From a virus (lineage: Duplodnaviria > Heunggongvirae > Uroviricota > Caudoviricetes), in the IMG/VR virus record IMGVR_UViG_2671180747_000017: DNA of 64,000 bases; one strand, 5' to 3'. The position numbers are program-made. This document shows positions 48,001 through 60,000 of the stretch, one piece after another; the stretch's first letter is position 1, and each line of letters opens with the position of its first letter.

Positions 48001-51000
48001 GGAAAAAGACGATAAAAGAGGCCAGGATTGGCAGTATAGTACCGGCACAGCAGGAAGGGTACATACTTATCGGCCTTGATCTCACATACAGTGATGGCTC
48101 TACAGCACATAAACCTGTAACAGAATACGGCAGTGCGCACCCTGATGATCAAACCGTGCTGGCGATACCCGTTGATAAGGCTATCGCTCAGGTCAGGGAT
48201 CGCAGCAAATTTGCAGAGATATCGAAAAATTATGGTTATTTTATGCCGAAGCAGCAGGGACTTTCTCTGAAAGAGCTTCAGAAGGGGGCCAGCAACGTCG
48301 CGGCGGACGCGATCAAGAATGGCGGTAATGCACAGGCTGCGGTGGATGAATATTATGCTGCGACTGGTTCACAACCGCATCAACAGAAAATTCAGCAACA
48401 AAAACTTCAGCAACAGGTTATCAACTGGGCGGGAGATGATCCTGATAAGCTGTCATTTGCCAGAAATGTAGCGGCCCGTCAGCCTGAAATGCTGGAGCCT
48501 CAGAATCAGAAATTGCTGGAGAACGGGTATGCGAATTTTCTCCGTATTCAAAAGGCCAGGGGGGAACAGGCCAGAGATGAAAGTGCTTCATCTGCATCTC
48601 AGTTTATCCGTGGACTGAAACAGAATTACGCCCAGTAATTCACGATATTCCATTAATACCATTTCCTGATGCCCGGCCATTGTGCCGGGTTTTTTTATGG
48701 AGTCTGTATGGCCTATTCAGAGGAACAGCGTCCTGAGGCGCAACTCGGTAACCAGAATCGTAACAGCCTGAACATTCAGCAACCCGGCGAAACTGACAGC
48801 TATGAAGCATTTTTCTCTGATCCGAATCGCTGGAAGGATAACAGTACGTCGTTCAGCCTGGGCGATGTATTGCCAACAATGGGTAAAGGTTTCGCCCAGT
48901 CCGTCCGGGGAACAGGGGAAATGGCCCGTGGACTCGGTGATGCGATGATTCAGAGCCCGGTAAAAACAGGGGCGCGTATTTTAAATGAGTTCAGCCGTAT
49001 GGGGCTGCCGGGTGTCGCAACTGTGCAGGATATTTTTGCCGGTGGCAGCAGGGGGGCTGATGAGGTCATCGATACCCTGCCTGATGGCAAAAACGCGGTT
49101 ACTGATACTGTCGGTAAAGGTCTGAAGGCAACCGGTAAGGCTGTCAGTGATGGTGCTGAAGCCACTGATGAATGGCTGACCGGTAAGATGTCGCCGGGTG
49201 CAGTTCGTGCGCTGAATACGCCGATGACCGAAGGCTATGATGATTCTGCGGTCTGGGTGGCGAAGGGTGTAAACCTGATTGGTGCGCTTGTACCTGATAT
49301 GGTTGCTGGCGGTGTGGCTAAAAAGGTGGGTGATGTCACACTGCGAAAAATGCTGACCGCCGGGCTGGAGAAAAAATACATCGCGGCAGGGATGCAGCCG
49401 GAAAGAGCCACGGCACTGGCAGCAGAAGCTGTCGATAAAAAAATGCCGGATTTATTCCAGGCGGGCCTGATCACCCATTCCACAGCCAGTGCACAGGGGC
49501 AGAGTGCAATGGCGGCAGCAGATGCTGTTCTTAATGCGGATTACTCTGAGCTGGCGCAGTCACCGAAATTTCAGCAGACGTTTTTGTCCATTGACGCCGA
49601 CCCGCAGCACGCACAGCTTACTGATCGCCAGAAAATGGATCTGGCAAAAGAGCGTGTTGCCGATGAGGTGCGCGCGCAGCTGGCAACCGATCCTGAATTG
49701 CTGGCTGTGAATGCCATGGCGGCAAAACTGGGTGACGCACAACTGTTTAATCTGGTGACACGAGGCACAGCGAAGACCGTTAAAAGCGGCATTGTCAGAA
49801 ATGCCACGGAACAGGGGGCGATTAATGCGGCGCAGGGCGGCTATTCACGCTATCAGGAAAACACGGCATTGCGTGAGACCGCCGGAATGGATGTGTCACC
49901 GTGGGAGGGCGTGGCTGACGCAACGATCGAAGGTGCAGCCTTTGGTGCTGCGATGGGGGCTCCATCCGGTGCGGTTGCCGGATATCGTGGCAGACGTCAG
50001 GCCGCAGAAGAAGCAGCCATGCGTGATGCTGAAACCGTGCAGCAGGACGACGCAGCCCCGCAACCAGAATCTGTTGATCCGGTGGCGCAGCATCGTGAAT
50101 CCATGCAGGGGATGAATCGCGAGCAGCTTCTGGAGCAGTATGCTGATGCGGATATGGCAACAGAGGGGGACGCATCCGCAGCTCATCGCCGGGAAGCTGC
50201 CAGCCAGTTGTTGAATGAACTGGACGAACAGGCGAAGCGACAGGCTGTGATGAATGAGCTGAAGGCGAAGCCGCGTTCTGAACTGCTTGAGGAATACCGC
50301 AGACTCAGCCAGAAAGAGGAGCGCACCGAGACTGAAGAACAACAGTTTCAGGCAATACGAGAAGTCATTCGCCCACAACAGGAAGTGACGCCGGAAGCAC
50401 AGTCACAGCCTGAAAATGCGGAGGATGGTAACGGGAGCATTTACCCGACGGTGCGGTTCCGGGACCCGAATGAAGTCCGCATTGAAATTAACGGGAATGG
50501 TGCGTCCAGACCAGCGGAACGCATTGAAAAGGTGCGCCCGGACAACCGTTATTTCACGGATGAGAAAAGCGCCATGGGGAGTGATGTTTTCCGTAATGCC
50601 GCCGCCACCGGCCTGAAACCGTCCGTAGTGAAGAAAGGCGAGACTCAATATGCTGTTGAAATGGATAATCCTGCGTTCTCTGAAGATGTGGCAACGGAAA
50701 CCATTAACACCCTGGCTGACGGAGAGCGTATTGCTGATGCTGACCCGATGGAGCAGCCCGCGTTCATGCGTGACCCACGATTCCGTGGTTTCACGGGGGA
50801 TGATACGGAGGTACAGGCCCGCCTTGCCCGTGGCAACGTGCCGACGGCAGAGGAGCTTGTACGTTCACAGATGGCTGAAGGTGATGCCGGTCCGACAGCA
50901 CAGGAGTTAACTGAGCGTCCACGCCTGCCCGCTCCCGGCGATATTCATCCCGGACAGGGATATCCGTTACCGGGAGAGGTGGCGCGTACGCCGGATGAGA

Positions 51001-57000: not shown

Positions 57001-60000
57001 CGGCGATAGTGAAATCGGTAGAGCGGGATATGAAGGTTGCCGTGGATCGCTTTAACCGCGAGTACAACAAAAAAGTGGGAGTGGATTAACAGAAATGGCC
57101 CCGTACGGAAGTGCGGGGCTGATTAAGGAATAAACACACATTAACCTGTAATAACCGGAGCTATTAACATATAGTCAGAAAGAGTATTTCATGTGAGACA
57201 GAGAGCCGATTTATGTTTAATGAAGAAAAAGTTGCGCAAATGGCAGCGTATTTGCTGAAAAAGCATGGCGGATCTATGCGTTTCATTAAGCTGATGAAGC
57301 TGATGTATCTCTCTGACCGCAAAGCAATGGAGTCTTTAACCGGGAAGGGGAGAGGTTTGAATGCTCCCCCACAATTCCCCGGCATCAAATCTCCATGCAG
57401 GTGAACTATTTTACCCCCAGCGGCAAATCGCAAAAACAATCAGTGCGATCGAAATGGCAGCCACTACAATTGCAAATGCTTCAGGCTAGGTCATTGGCTT
57501 ACCTCCTTCGGCGGTTCTGGTAGCGGCATCCAGTGGGTTACTTCTTTGAGATGCAGGTCTTCGCCATCACCGTCATCCCAAGTGGGATTGCCATCATTAA
57601 ACCAGTCGCCATATACGCCGACCTGAGTGTTGGGGATGCTTGGTGGGTAGTTGTTTTTAAAGTCAGCTGCTAACACATAGTATTGTCGCTCTCCCATTTC
57701 TGGCATTCGATCACTACAGCTTATCCAACCATCCGGAGTTACCGGAACTGGCGGAACGGCTGTTTGCTCTCGAACGTCATTAGTCGCTATCGGTTCTGCT
57801 GCCAACTGACTGGCATATTTGTTAATGGTAACGATAAGCTCTTGCTCAGCCTCATCCAGACAATCACCGATACCTCGCCTGTCACCGTCAAAATCATCGA
57901 AATCGGCACGAATCTTGGCAACCTTCTGGATTGCGGACAACACCTCACTAGGAATTACCGGATAGTTGGTTGACGTTTCCGCGATTTCCCGAAAATTATT
58001 GGTTGACGAATTCTTGTTTTCCCGAAAGTTTCCGGACTGAAGCATGGCGGCGCGGCAGGCATTCCAGCCTCTTACCTCTGCAATAGCGGCAACCGCATCA
58101 ACCGCGTACATGCTAAGAGGATTAGGCATTGGTTTTTCTTCCGGTACTACTGGTGCTGGAGGGGCGGCGTAAATGCCCTCTATCACTAAATGTTTGCGCT
58201 CAAAATCATCTGGCTCTCGATGATATACGTAACTCCAATCACCAAGGTTATCATTGCGCCTGCAACGGAAACCTATCGGCTCGGCTTCCAGCGCTGCCAG
58301 AGCAATTCGTGCCAGTTCTTCCGCTTCTTCTGCTGGCAGTACAACGTTGCTACCAGGTCCGTATGTTTCGCGCCACTGCTTGATTGTCAGTAGTCGCTCT
58401 TTGGTAATAGTGATCATGCCGCGTTTCCTTCTTTCTTATTAACAATTACACCGTCATATATTTCATTAAGGTGCCCTCTCAACTCCATGCGCCTTAATGC
58501 AGATAACATGTAATCGCATTCAACCTGCTTATTCCCAATAAAAGGTTTATCTTCAGGGTTACCCCAACAGCAATTCCCCTTGGGCCATCCATGTACTTTC
58601 CGTACTCTTCCGTTAACAACGTGAAGTAATCCCCAGCCAGGTGGTAAATCCTCAATTGAAATAATTCCCGGCTCACTAATAAAGAATCGCCAGTCGCCCA
58701 TTCCAAGAGACGGATTTTTACGAAAACGCTTTTTTCTATCTGCCAACAAGTCAGCACGAGAACATTTCGCCTCTATCAGGCATGATGCTGAATTTCTGAA
58801 TCCCATAGCATCTGGCTGTTCTCCGGTACTGGTTACAGCTATAAAGCGGTCATGAAAACAAACCTTGAACCCGTTGCGCTTAAGGAACTTGTACGCAATC
58901 TGACAGAGTTCGCGGTGTGTTAACGCCATATCACTCTCCTTTGATGCGAATGCCAGCAAGCCAGTTTCTTATGCCGATATATTCAGCGTTCCGGAAACCG
59001 CTTTTTACATATATAAATGGCAAGCGAAGATTGTGACCATTGACTGCCAGGTAGTCTTTACAACCCTGTTCGGTGAAACAGCAGGTAACGAATTCATCAA
59101 TATCTTTCACAGCAACGCGCCGCCATTTTTCTGGTGGCTCTCGAAAGTTTTCATGAAGTAGCTCGAGACGACGACTATGGCGTTTATTGGCTTCATTGCC
59201 ATCTTCGTCAACCCAGACAATCCGGTCATGGTCATAATCAGCATCAACAACGATTTCGCGCTTTTGATACACACAAAACATGGGATCTGACGTTATTCGA
59301 TTGTCCTGTGTTCGAATATTTTCACCGATGATGCCAAACGAATCTGGTGCAGATTTTGTCTGCATCTCTTCGATACGTTCAGCCATCGCAGCACACTCTT
59401 CAAAGTTGCTTAATGCTTTTCGCTCCCATTCGGCGCATTGTTTTTCCAGTTCTGCTATGCGCTTACTTCCATCCGCGATTACTCCCTCGTAATATTCACG
59501 CTGCTCGTTGAGTTTTGATTTTGCTGTTTCAAGCTCAACGCGCAGCTTCCCTACCGTAAGCGCAATATCCTCGTTCTCCTGGTCGCGGCGTTTGATGTAT
59601 TGCTGGTTTCTTTCCCGTTCATCCAGCAGTGCCAGCACGGTAGCCGGATTGGCTGCGGCGATGAATTCAGCATTGGCCTGCTGTTCCATTTGGAAATCTT
59701 CATCGAAACCGCTTTCAGGATGTGCTCCTTCAATTCTGCAAATGGGAATATATCCAGCAGCCTCGCGATGAATTAGTGCATCATCACCATCAAATCGGTT
59801 CTCTCCATATTCGAGCGACCACTCACCACGCGTTGCTTTTTCTGCCTTTTCACGCAGTACCTGATAGTTAATCTCGCTCATTTTTCTCTTCGCTCCGGTA
59901 TACAAGAATTACAACGTCACCTCTGCTAATTACGCGAGCTGGATCTCCTGGCTCCATGCTGTCAATCCCGAAGGCTTCGGAAAACGCATTCATTGCCTTC

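Follow-up and report, generated by a model that had tools for sequence, protein, structure and literature searches.

The window, a 64,000-nucleotide stretch of viral DNA, carries at 48708..57089 (+ strand) a genuine gene for a cysteine-free protein of 2,793 aa that has already been described as a virion protein of short-tailed Shiga-toxin (Stx) phages. We think it probable that this protein is packaged in the capsid as an essential ejection protein and is built as a chassis plus cargo, ejection itself being the part that we infer. The window, from a Sepvirinae Stx phage, shares 99.9% identity with Shigella phage 75/02 Stx. The giant gene, ∼14% of the phage genome, corresponds to Sp5 ORF80 (ECs1242), phi24B gp47, 75/02 Stx gp68, and the 933W-type giant ORF, and it is present in 186 Stx-phage records with at least 90% identity over at least 80% of its length. 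The Sp5, phi24B, and 933W-type orthologues represent this very protein, with 97-99.9% nucleotide identity, a length of 2,793 aa, and the same place at the end of the late operon; only allelic mosaics in the LPD5 and PBECR segments set them apart, nothing substantive. Virion proteomics and a deletion have been published for orthologues, and the idea of a polyvalent virion protein is not new. The second zincin and the split into chassis and cargo are absent from the published annotations of the Sp5 and phi24B orthologues.

The coordinates proposed by the first-pass annotation, 48708-57089, are right. The mechanical ORF is longer (48669..57089, +), and its ATG at 48669 falls within a terminator-like hairpin with a T7 run (48671..48696, +; GCCCGGCcattgtGCCGGGT; stem 48671-48690, then T7) that separates the giant gene from the 421-aa gene before it. 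The ATG at 48708 lies 5 nt behind a GGAG ribosome-binding site at 48699-48702 (together 48699..48710, +), is the RefSeq start of 75/02 Stx gp68, and gives 2,793 aa, the published length of Sp5 ORF80. In the phi24B mass spectrometry (MS) data the earliest gp47 peptide is aa 18-40, and the N-terminal peptide itself is absent. The gene is the final + strand gene of the virion module, after the portal, capsid, and tail genes and ahead of a strand switch. A terminator-like hairpin and a start of its own do precede it at the distal end of that module, as had been noted.

Published data on orthologues place the protein in the virion. In purified phi24B virions gp47 was detected with 12,608 spectra and 422 peptides (93.6% coverage), making it the second most abundant protein by spectral count. 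Absence from virions, which would have spoken against the first-pass annotation, does not apply. Its peptides span aa 18-40 to aa 2777-2788, including one with the first HExxH motif. Every region of gp47 is represented, 62% of the gel PSMs are in four slices above the portal slice, and virion gp47 is mostly a species larger than the 80-kDa portal; therefore, any putative processing could only be incomplete or follow ejection. A length-normalised PSM estimate gave ∼23 copies per virion (range roughly ten to a few tens), with an estimator that returned 6.2 for the nozzle (true 6) and 22 for the lateral fibre (true 18). The phi24B authors, whose published data set includes about 36,000 empty particles, found gp47 in none of their cryo-EM maps or in the model and proposed that it is an ejection protein.

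The gene is also essential and not dispensable, a possibility the first-pass annotation had left room for: the Sp5 deletion mutant dORF80 packaged DNase-resistant DNA at the wild-type level but formed no plaques and no lysogens on MG1655. Through its orthologues the giant protein thus has the properties of the ejection class, being an internal virion protein needed for infectivity and not for DNA packaging. Packaged DNA without infectivity is the phenotype of P22 and T7 ejection-protein mutants. The dORF80 heads looked normal and contained DNA but were not bound by an anti-tail-fibre antibody (data not shown in the Sp5 paper), which argues for involvement in tail attachment, or for instability of particles that lack the protein, and against a pure ejection defect. 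This observation fits the proposal of the Sp5 authors, made from a COG1483 AAA+ match, that the protein is a tail-assembly factor or an ATPase that acts in morphogenesis and is not ejected. We regard this as highly improbable. The 2,793 aa contain no Walker A motif ([AG]xxxxGK[ST]) anywhere, neither Pfam nor NCBIfam reported an ATPase family, and a major stoichiometric component of the mature virion would be unusual for an assembly enzyme. The Sp5 assignment as an AAA+ ATPase (COG1483) is unsupported.

The deletion phenotype bears equally on the view that the protein is a dedicated anti-defence payload ('DarB-like antirestriction protein'), injected only against restriction, CRISPR, or other immunity and without a structural role. 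Relatives are indeed annotated as DarB-like, the cargo of the family (RNases, ART, methyltransferase, helicase) has been tied to counter-defence (Iyer 2017), and Stx phages that are otherwise near-identical differ in their cargo segments, as would be expected of an arms race. Anti-defence cannot be the whole function, however, because the deletion abolishes infectivity on E. coli K-12 MG1655 although DNA is packaged. P1 darB is dispensable on non-restricting hosts and DarB is non-essential, with which the essentiality of the giant gene contrasts. The giant protein also lacks the methyltransferase and helicase domains of P1 DarB, with no Pfam or NCBIfam match to an N6-adenine methyltransferase or SF2 helicase at E<=0.1, and the weak PHROG 'DarB-like' match is confined to the LPD38 region (aa 2351-2681). 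PADLOC, whose library models defence rather than anti-defence, gave no match. A purely anti-defensive protein is therefore unlikely.

We next turn to the architecture of the protein. Pfam called LPD5 (152.5 bits), LPD1 (83.5 bits), MuF_C (63.9 bits), and LPD38 (164.6 bits), all over the gathering threshold. These families were defined for phage polyvalent proteins (Iyer, Burroughs, Anand, de Souza, Aravind; Iyer 2017), and the combination of several unrelated domains, including family-specific LPD domains, in one polypeptide bears out the earlier suggestion of a polyvalent protein, as do the location among late virion genes and the zincin-like MPTase domain, which occurs in about 36% of phage-type polyvalent proteins and is not obligatory (Iyer 2017). 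The N-terminal module (aa 1-450; 48708..50057, +), which has no family assignment, is N-terminal in those relatives that have it; its segment at aa 182-200 is the most hydrophobic of the protein, and aa 406-433 resemble a Gly zipper. The module is followed by a hydrophobic-poor, partly low-complexity linker (aa ∼451-904; 50058..51419, +); hydrophobic residues are few throughout aa ∼420-960. The low-complexity regions are less extensive than the 'long' ones initially described, as they are limited to aa ∼392-572 (Gly/Ala-rich, then E/K/R/Q-rich) and aa 2517-2570. A conserved unnamed region (aa ∼905-1050) and LPD5 (aa 1051-1200) occupy 51420..52307 (+). LPD5 ends in an Arg-rich motif, was found in 127 of 149 relatives, where it runs into the zincin, and is strongly variable in Stx2_120517, the most divergent of four Stx phages compared.

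Both HExxH motifs reported for the protein are present, where 0.036 would be expected by chance from its own composition, and both are invariant in diverged relatives. Motif 1 (ALAHEWFHSLDNYFG) starts at aa 1284 (HEWFH, nt 52557-52571) and belongs to a CLCA_X-type zincin (zincin 1, aa 1182-1440; 52251..53027, +, including Pfam LPD1 at aa 1361-1440), for which peptidase activity is predicted. Amino acids 1182-1437 match positions 3-245 of the 250 in CLCA_X (NCBIfam NF041907) with an E value of 5.9e-44 and 150.4 bits; this is below the curated cut-off of 260 bits, set for stand-alone family members, and zincin 1 is a domain-level relative within a larger protein. Among 140 sequences (clusters at 50% identity), H1284, E1285, and H1288 are 100% and D1291 98.6% conserved, and H1263 and E1265 are likewise ∼99% conserved. 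Zincin 1 thus shares the HExxH and the conserved downstream Asp with the CLCA_X/CLCA_N zincins, reading HExxHxxD where Lenart et al. 2013 write HExxHxxxD, and its Asp three residues past HExxH and conserved upstream His resemble the widespread phage-type MPTase clade of Iyer 2017. CLCA_X proteins are mostly phage- and plasmid-borne and often exceed 1,000 aa (Lenart et al. 2013; NF041907). The N-terminal domains of mammalian CLCA are proposed self-cleaving proteases.

Motif 2 (LRHEIIHHAMEH) starts at aa 1551 (HEIIH, nt 53358-53372) and marks a separate zincin-like domain of the HExxH...E type (zincin 2, aa 1441-1740; 53028..53927, +) that matched nothing in Pfam or NCBIfam. Its invariant E1607 (nt 53526-53528) is carried by a later helix. 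In both HExxH regions the predicted elements come in zincin order, an N-terminal helix and three-stranded sheet, the HExxH helix, and a later helix with the acidic ligand, in keeping with a predicted zincin fold in each. Foldseek found nothing significant in the PDB (best hit lethal factor, E 0.13). The HExxH domains resemble the protein endopeptidases lethal factor, MtfA, PPEP, and CLCA.

Pfam MuF_C at aa 1750-1837 (53955..54218, +; cut-off 27.6 bits) is a PBECR RNase-type domain and not a peptidase, and the phi24B label 'MuF-C metallopeptidase' is a mislabel. Its H1752 (100%) and S1816 (97%), conserved in 36 sequences, would correspond to the active PBECR configuration described by Iyer 2017, a mapping made from conservation, and RNase activity is predicted. 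PBECR is the most variable segment among Stx phages.

The C-terminal ∼900 aa (aa 1881-2793; 54348..57086, +), with LPD38 at aa 2476-2681 (56133-56750, +) inside them, form a constant module found at the extreme C-terminus of proteins of 1,900-4,200 aa whose upstream domains differ. In all 26 diverged viral loci the module ends 0-29 aa before the stop codon. It is 32-58% identical in proteins with methyltransferase, ART-PolyVal, InPase, ResIII helicase, RadC-JAB, or PBECR5 domains, and it also occurs in Ralstonia GP4-type phages, Vibrio phages, Bacillus podophages, and the metagenomic MetMV. Among Stx phages this chassis hardly varies, and it is the PBECR and LPD5 regions that are exchanged. 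HExxH is missing from 14 of the 26 diverged carriers, and hence zincin processing is not intrinsic to the chassis. The AF2 model of the module is confident (pLDDT 85.6, pTM 0.81) and mostly helical with a beta insert; it has no fold relative in the PDB and no strong hydrophobic segment (best 19-mer 1.22, Kyte-Doolittle). From its conservation and position we propose that the module may serve in a conduit or in packaging.

These domains allow the proposal of the phi24B preprint to be weighed, namely an ejection protein whose metallopeptidase digests peptidoglycan for a periplasmic conduit. Podophage ejectosomes commonly carry a cell-wall hydrolase, and in a Ralstonia-phage relative the adjacent giant partner protein has an SLT lytic transglycosylase domain, which is a hallmark of ejection proteins. 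But the domain that the preprint named is an RNase-type fold according to those who defined PBECR, the actual HExxH domains look like protein endopeptidases, more than half of the carriers of the same chassis have no HExxH, and the C-terminal module is also found in phages of Gram-positive hosts. Peptidoglycan metallopeptidases (M23, M15/LAS) are, moreover, not known to use HExxH. We consider peptidoglycan digestion quite unlikely.

Upstream of the giant gene, four ORFs of 218, 150, 83 (Gly-zipper), and 421 aa (45996..48638, +) likewise encode no cysteine in 872 aa, and 103 of 127 giant relatives are cysteine-free. The five-gene synteny is kept in diverged viral contigs. The phi24B homologues of the 218-, 150-, and 421-aa proteins (gp51, gp50, and gp48) were clearly detected in virions and lie outside the cryo-EM model. 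The 83-aa ORF has an 86-aa counterpart there with only 16 spectra, which the authors dismissed as a bacteriocin-like contaminant. The 421-aa gene is Sp5 ORF79, which is essential.

In the chassis-plus-cargo reading that we favor, the two terminal modules and the four cysteine-free proteins encoded upstream would serve for packaging near the portal, for exit through the tail unfolded and before the DNA, and for forming or anchoring a conduit across the envelope. The central domains, LPD5 with the CLCA_X-type zincin, the second HExxH...E zincin, and the PBECR RNase-type domain, would be delivered enzymes. The zincins would most likely act after entry as sequence-specific endopeptidases that cut the polyprotein into units or cleave host proteins, digestion of peptidoglycan being an unlikely task for them, and early in infection the RNase-type domain would have RNA of the host or the phage as its target. 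E1285, E1552, E1607, and H1752 are now defined as residues for probing these roles. New enterohaemorrhagic E. coli strains arise through short-tailed Stx phages, which bind BamA before their DNA crosses the envelope. If correct, the reading identifies the entry machinery of these phages, predicts which part of the giant protein can be deleted or exchanged, and explains why thousands of related giant proteins carry differing enzymes.

A parallel is the vRNAP gp50 of coliphage N4, which also has about 3,000-3,500 aa and few copies per T=9 podophage capsid and is invisible in virion maps. It combines a membrane-interacting N-terminal region, an enzymatic middle, an HExxH domain, and, at the C-terminus, a helical domain of ∼1,000 aa that has no structural relatives. 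Ejection of N4 gp50, which is thought to leave unfolded, is experimentally established, whereas for the giant protein it is presumed. The alignment of zincin 2 to the N4 C1 motif region is weak (hhalign E 6e-4, probability 28%), the two C-terminal modules showed no similarity in sequence, and the giant protein, unlike vRNAP, has no RNA polymerase. T7 gp14-gp16 and P22 gp7/gp16/gp20 are, like the giant protein, internal podophage virion proteins needed for infectivity and not for DNA packaging, and their genes form a cassette in the late part of the virion module, as do the giant gene and its upstream ORFs. P1 DarB, too, is a large protein packaged in the head, and it enters the host with the DNA, as the giant protein would; the label shared with it rests on the LPD38 region. 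The polyvalent proteins of Iyer 2017 are also multi-domain, lie amid virion genes, and have LPD5, LPD1, LPD38, and PBECR, but were treated as early-acting effectors, whereas the giant protein is in addition indispensable for infectious particles.

More tentatively, the LPD38-containing C-terminal module and the four cysteine-free proteins may constitute a podophage ejectosome of a distinct and widespread kind, with no relation in sequence or fold to those of T7, P22, and N4. Its largest subunit would also be a carrier by which exchangeable enzymes are threaded into the cell before the DNA. Such enzymes would include zincins, JAB peptidases, RNases, ADP-ribosyltransferases, helicases, and pyrophosphatases. 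A natural modular chassis for protein injection would then exist in the phages by which Shiga toxin is spread, and its reach would extend to phages that infect Gram-positive hosts and to a putative archaeal virus. The giant gene has an equivalent position in Ralstonia RPZH6, MetMV, and JC1.

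The window comes from a short-tailed Shiga-toxin phage of the Sepvirinae, and its giant gene is present in 186 phage records with at least 90% identity over at least 80% of its length. The six-frame ORF list gives a single ORF on the + strand (48669..57089), whose first ATG falls within a terminator-like hairpin (stem 48671-48690 followed by seven T). The ATG at 48708 has GGAG (48699-48702) 5 nt ahead of it. RefSeq starts gp68 of Shigella phage 75/02 Stx, a 99.9% match to the window along the full 8,382 nt, at this same ATG; the product, 2,793 aa, has the length published for Sp5 ORF80. 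The N-terminal peptide is not among the phi24B mass spectrometry peptides, and the choice of start rests on sequence. The RefSeq entry of VT2-Sakai (NC_000902; CDS 62-8482 in our locus L006) uses the upstream, hairpin-embedded ATG and arrives at 2,806 aa, and the 75/02 Stx entry and the Sp5 paper use the equivalent of ATG 48708 and arrive at 2,793 aa. The protein contains two HExxH motifs, at aa 1284 (ALAHEWFHSLDNYFG) and aa 1551 (LRHEIIHHAMEH), with 0.036 expected by chance from its own composition, and its gene is the final + strand gene of the virion module. Hence, the first-pass annotation was right to place the gene at 48708-57089, at the end of the virion module behind its own terminator and start, and to assign it two HExxH motifs. 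To speak of long low-complexity and coiled-coil regions was an overstatement: low-entropy sequence is limited to aa ~392-572 and aa 2517-2570; aa ~420-960 form a hydrophobic-poor stretch. On the + strand, strong hairpins of this terminator-like kind, each with a T-run, occupy three spacers and punctuate the end of the late operon: upstream of the 133-aa ORF at 45500 (45096-45114), the 218-aa ORF at 45996 (45953-45972) and the giant gene at 48708 (48671-48690), and a Q-modified polymerase presumably reads through all three.

Two papers treat the giant protein directly, Mondal et al. 2016 (PMC5155283) and a preprint of April 2026 on the cryo-EM and proteomics of phi24B (bioRxiv 10.64898/2026.04.10.717836). 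The protein is needed for infectivity and dispensable for DNA packaging. Among 43 Sp5 genes deleted by Mondal et al., loss of ORF80 (2,793 aa) or of ORF79, the upstream gene for a 421-aa protein, left DNase-resistant packaged DNA at wild-type amounts and abolished plaques and lysogens on K-12 MG1655, and both mutants could be complemented (PMC5155283). A purely anti-defence role is unlikely, as it is contradicted by the requirement for the gene on K-12. According to data that the paper mentions but does not show, an anti-tail-fibre antibody failed to bind the dORF80 heads, and because of this the authors named ORF80 a tail-formation gene; they also noted a COG1483 AAA+ match (PMC5155283). The missing tail-fibre signal would fit a tail-assembly ATPase; it may mean that stable attachment of the tail depends on the protein. 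We found neither a Walker A motif nor an ATPase family match in the giant protein, which is a stoichiometric component of the virion, and we rejected the AAA+ label and consider a tail-assembly ATPase highly improbable.

The preprint found gp47, the phi24B orthologue, to be abundant in virions and missing from every map, and proposed that it is an encapsidated ejection protein (bioRxiv 10.64898/2026.04.10.717836). With 12,608 spectra, 422 peptides and 93.6% coverage, it is outranked by the capsid protein alone (bioRxiv 10.64898/2026.04.10.717836, supplement). Its peptides, one of which contains HExxH-1, reach from aa 18-40 to aa 2777-2788 in the numbering used here (the size of 2,811 aa in the preprint is that of the stop-to-stop frame, an offset of +18), and 6,321 of its 10,216 gel PSMs (62%) lie in four slices above the slice in which the 80-kDa portal protein peaks (bioRxiv 10.64898/2026.04.10.717836). 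Therefore, the whole polypeptide is packaged, mostly as large species, and it is invisible by averaging. From the published counts, we estimated copy numbers by normalising batch PSMs for length and scaling them to 12 portal copies. This gave ~23 copies of gp47 per virion, a value good to about a factor of two; by the same estimator the nozzle comes out at 6.2 (true value 6), the lateral fibre at 22 (18) and the adaptor at 10.7, of which there are presumably 12, given the dodecameric portal. The observation is thus confirmed and its interpretation as a polyvalent ejected protein supported, with both the protein and the idea already in the literature. New here are the CLCA_X assignment of the first motif, a second, unmodelled zincin, the corrected MuF_C and AAA+ labels, an architecture of constant chassis and variable cargo whose fold lacks a relative among solved structures, and a cysteine-free cassette of five genes.

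The giant protein has no cysteine among its 2,793 residues (P ~5e-14 at 1.1% Cys), and 103 of 127 giant relatives are likewise cysteine-free. The property extends to the four adjoining upstream ORFs on the + strand, which have no cysteine in 872 residues: the 218-aa ORF (45996-46652; gp51 in phi24B), the 150-aa ORF (46649-47101; gp50), the 83-aa ORF (47111-47362; an 86-aa homologue) and the 421-aa ORF (47373-48638; gp48). The three ORFs that precede them have 4, 2 and 3 cysteines. In phi24B virions, gp51, gp50 and gp48 were detected clearly, and none is in the structural model (bioRxiv 10.64898/2026.04.10.717836); our PSM estimate puts them at ~27-44 copies. We scanned 26 loci (24 diverged viral contigs, Ralstonia phage RPZH6 and Methanosarcina virus MetMV) for upstream ORFs. 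In 13-14 of them, the giant gene comes after homologues of the 218-, 150- and 83-aa proteins, and a cysteine-free ORF of ~400-450 aa lies directly 5' of it in most viral contigs. The four upstream ORFs appear to make up the remainder of an ejection cassette. The 83-aa ORF, named 'bacteriocin' in RefSeq, encodes a glycine zipper of the YMGG type (Pfam E 9.4e-6, under the 28.9-bit gathering score); its 86-aa homologue, with 16 spectra, was dismissed as a contaminant (bioRxiv 10.64898/2026.04.10.717836). Being conserved in the cassette, it may be a membrane-active internal protein.

The C-terminal module of the giant protein is constant and its cargo swappable. Residues 1881-2793, which make up this module, are the part of the protein that tells most; they share 32-58% identity with the C-termini of metagenomic proteins that carry methyltransferase, ART-PolyVal or InPase domains further upstream. 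By tblastn, the module is present in 355 phage records, including Stx phages, Vibrio phages (41.6%), Ralstonia GP4-type phages (27%), Burkholderia phages, Bacillus megaterium podophages (22-24%, partial) and the metagenome-assembled 'Methanosarcina virus MetMV' (28% over 92%; host assigned in silico). It is the only part that the 3,002-aa protein of MetMV and ORF72 of Ralstonia phage RPZH6 have in common with the giant protein. The module of MetMV (MK170447; L003:5584-14592) scores a phmmer E of 1e-89, and if the assignment of an archaeal host is right, the module works independently of the bacterial envelope. In RPZH6 (L002), a relative of the GP4-type Ralstonia phages, two overlapping CDS take the place of a single giant one. 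The first (7045-10743) starts with an SLT lytic transglycosylase, the second (10722-16724) combines LPD3 with the LPD38 C-terminal module, and each bears the annotation 'DarB-like antirestriction'. The module ends 0-29 aa short of the stop codon in all 26 diverged viral contigs, in ORFs of 1,932-4,182 aa, and 14 of these 26 carriers are without any HExxH. Their cargo varies from ResIII helicase with RadC-JAB, PBECR5 and ART, through DUF7178 with JAB, JAB with ART, or InPase alone, to nothing recognisable. Among Stx phages, whose alleles are otherwise 92-97% identical, substitutions cluster in pre-LPD5/LPD5 (aa 801-1200; 51108-52307), where those of phage Stx2_120517 are concentrated, and in the PBECR segment, where phage PhiR5_2 has 106 differences in 200 aa (aa 1701-1900; 53808-54407). 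Residues 1901-2793 are almost invariant among the Stx phages compared, a pattern that suggests exchange of cargo by recombination. Searches with the whole protein and with a profile of the C-terminal module against PDB sequences gave no match.

Pfam places LPD5 (aa 1051-1200), LPD1 (aa 1361-1440), MuF_C (aa 1750-1837) and LPD38 (aa 2476-2681) far above threshold, and both HExxH motifs lie outside all Pfam domains of the protein. Relaxing the Pfam thresholds brought up nothing but sub-threshold noise (Peptidase_M76 E 0.14, Gly-zipper E 0.09) in the N-terminal module, the linker, the region before LPD5, zincin 2 and those parts of the C-terminal module that were scanned. The NCBIfam model CLCA_X covers aa 1182-1437 (E 5.9e-44), with a score of 150 bits that is below the 260-bit cut-off for stand-alone members. 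This model spans both HExxH-1 and LPD1, and thus LPD1, with the conserved E1375 and E1382, is probably the C-terminal subdomain of zincin 1. CLCA_X is a zincin family rich in phages and plasmids, with an Asp after HExxH, and a sister of the CLCA N-terminal domain (Lenart et al. 2013), which is proposed to cleave itself. The commonest phage-type polyvalent metallopeptidase shares these features, with an Asp three residues past the motif and a conserved His ahead of it (Iyer et al. 2017). With aa 1040-1880 as the query, HMMER returned 6,997 relatives from 1.84 billion cluster representatives (2,508 at E<=1e-30), of which the best 150 are mostly 2,000-5,700 aa long. The catalytic motifs are conserved: in 140 diverged sequences, H1284, E1285 and H1288 are invariant, with D1291 at 98.6% and H1263 and E1265 at 99%, and 41 sequences with the second domain show no variation at E1552, H1555 or E1607, with H1551 at 98% and E1614 at 92%. 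Zincin 2 has no covering model in Pfam or NCBIfam, and from the invariant E1607 together with the conservation of HExxH-2 we read it as an HExxH...E (gluzincin-like) domain.

In an AF2 model of aa 1100-1740 from a 35-sequence alignment (pLDDT 78.8), a helix and strands come before the helix that bears each HExxH, and E1607 sits on a later helix. This order fits zincin folds, and the concern that the HExxH regions might not form them therefore fails. Foldseek with the central model gave nothing significant in the PDB (top match anthrax lethal factor, E 0.13), and its output does not separate matches to one zincin from matches to the other. Weak alignments between zincin 1 and zincin 2 (hhalign probability 42%, E 2.6e-4) and between zincin 2 and the HExxH subdomain of N4 vRNAP (E 6e-4) are leads only, and we do not claim a duplication. 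We also weighed whether the metallopeptidase might digest peptidoglycan. This is quite unlikely, because the fold relatives of the zincins are protein endopeptidases, many carriers of the chassis are without HExxH and the known metallopeptidases of murein do not use HExxH.

The preprint gave gp47 the domains LPD5, LPD1, LPD38 and 'MuF-C metallopeptidase' and left the real HExxH domains unmentioned (bioRxiv 10.64898/2026.04.10.717836). The last label is a mislabel: according to its definers, MuF_C is a PBECR domain with a barnase/EndoU/colicin-type RNase fold, in whose active form the first helix contributes a His and the C-terminal part a Ser/Thr. H1752 (100%) and S1816 (97%) match this form. 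The DarB label does not apply either, as Pfam found no DarB-type methyltransferase or helicase in the giant protein. PADLOC gave no match.

The closest functional analogue is N4 vRNAP, a giant protein of 4 +/- 1 copies unseen in maps, whose N-terminal domain binds membranes and whose middle is enzymatic; it also has an HExxH subdomain and a helical C-terminal domain of ~1,100 aa without structural relatives. No sequence homology between the C-terminal module here and the N4 vRNAP C2 domain was detected by hmmsearch or hhalign. The N- and C-terminal modules could form an internal or ejected apparatus with the small upstream proteins, and the giant protein would leave through the tail unfolded. 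Avoidance of cysteine would prevent oxidative trapping in the periplasm. After entry, the zincins might work as endopeptidases, cutting either the polyprotein or proteins of the host, and the PBECR domain may act on RNA.

Homologues of zincin 2 and of the N-terminal module, sought in three word-indexed searches, were nearly all enterobacterial fragments; among the matches listed, none exceeded 1,600 aa, and full-length giants seem to be absent from the collection used. Public E. coli assemblies contain thousands of 'partial' giant-gene fragments, with more than 2,000 members in single 90% clusters (P0006, P0009, P0012 and others). Contigs of draft STEC genomes seem to break often at the giant gene; the probable cause is the coexistence of several related prophages in a single genome.
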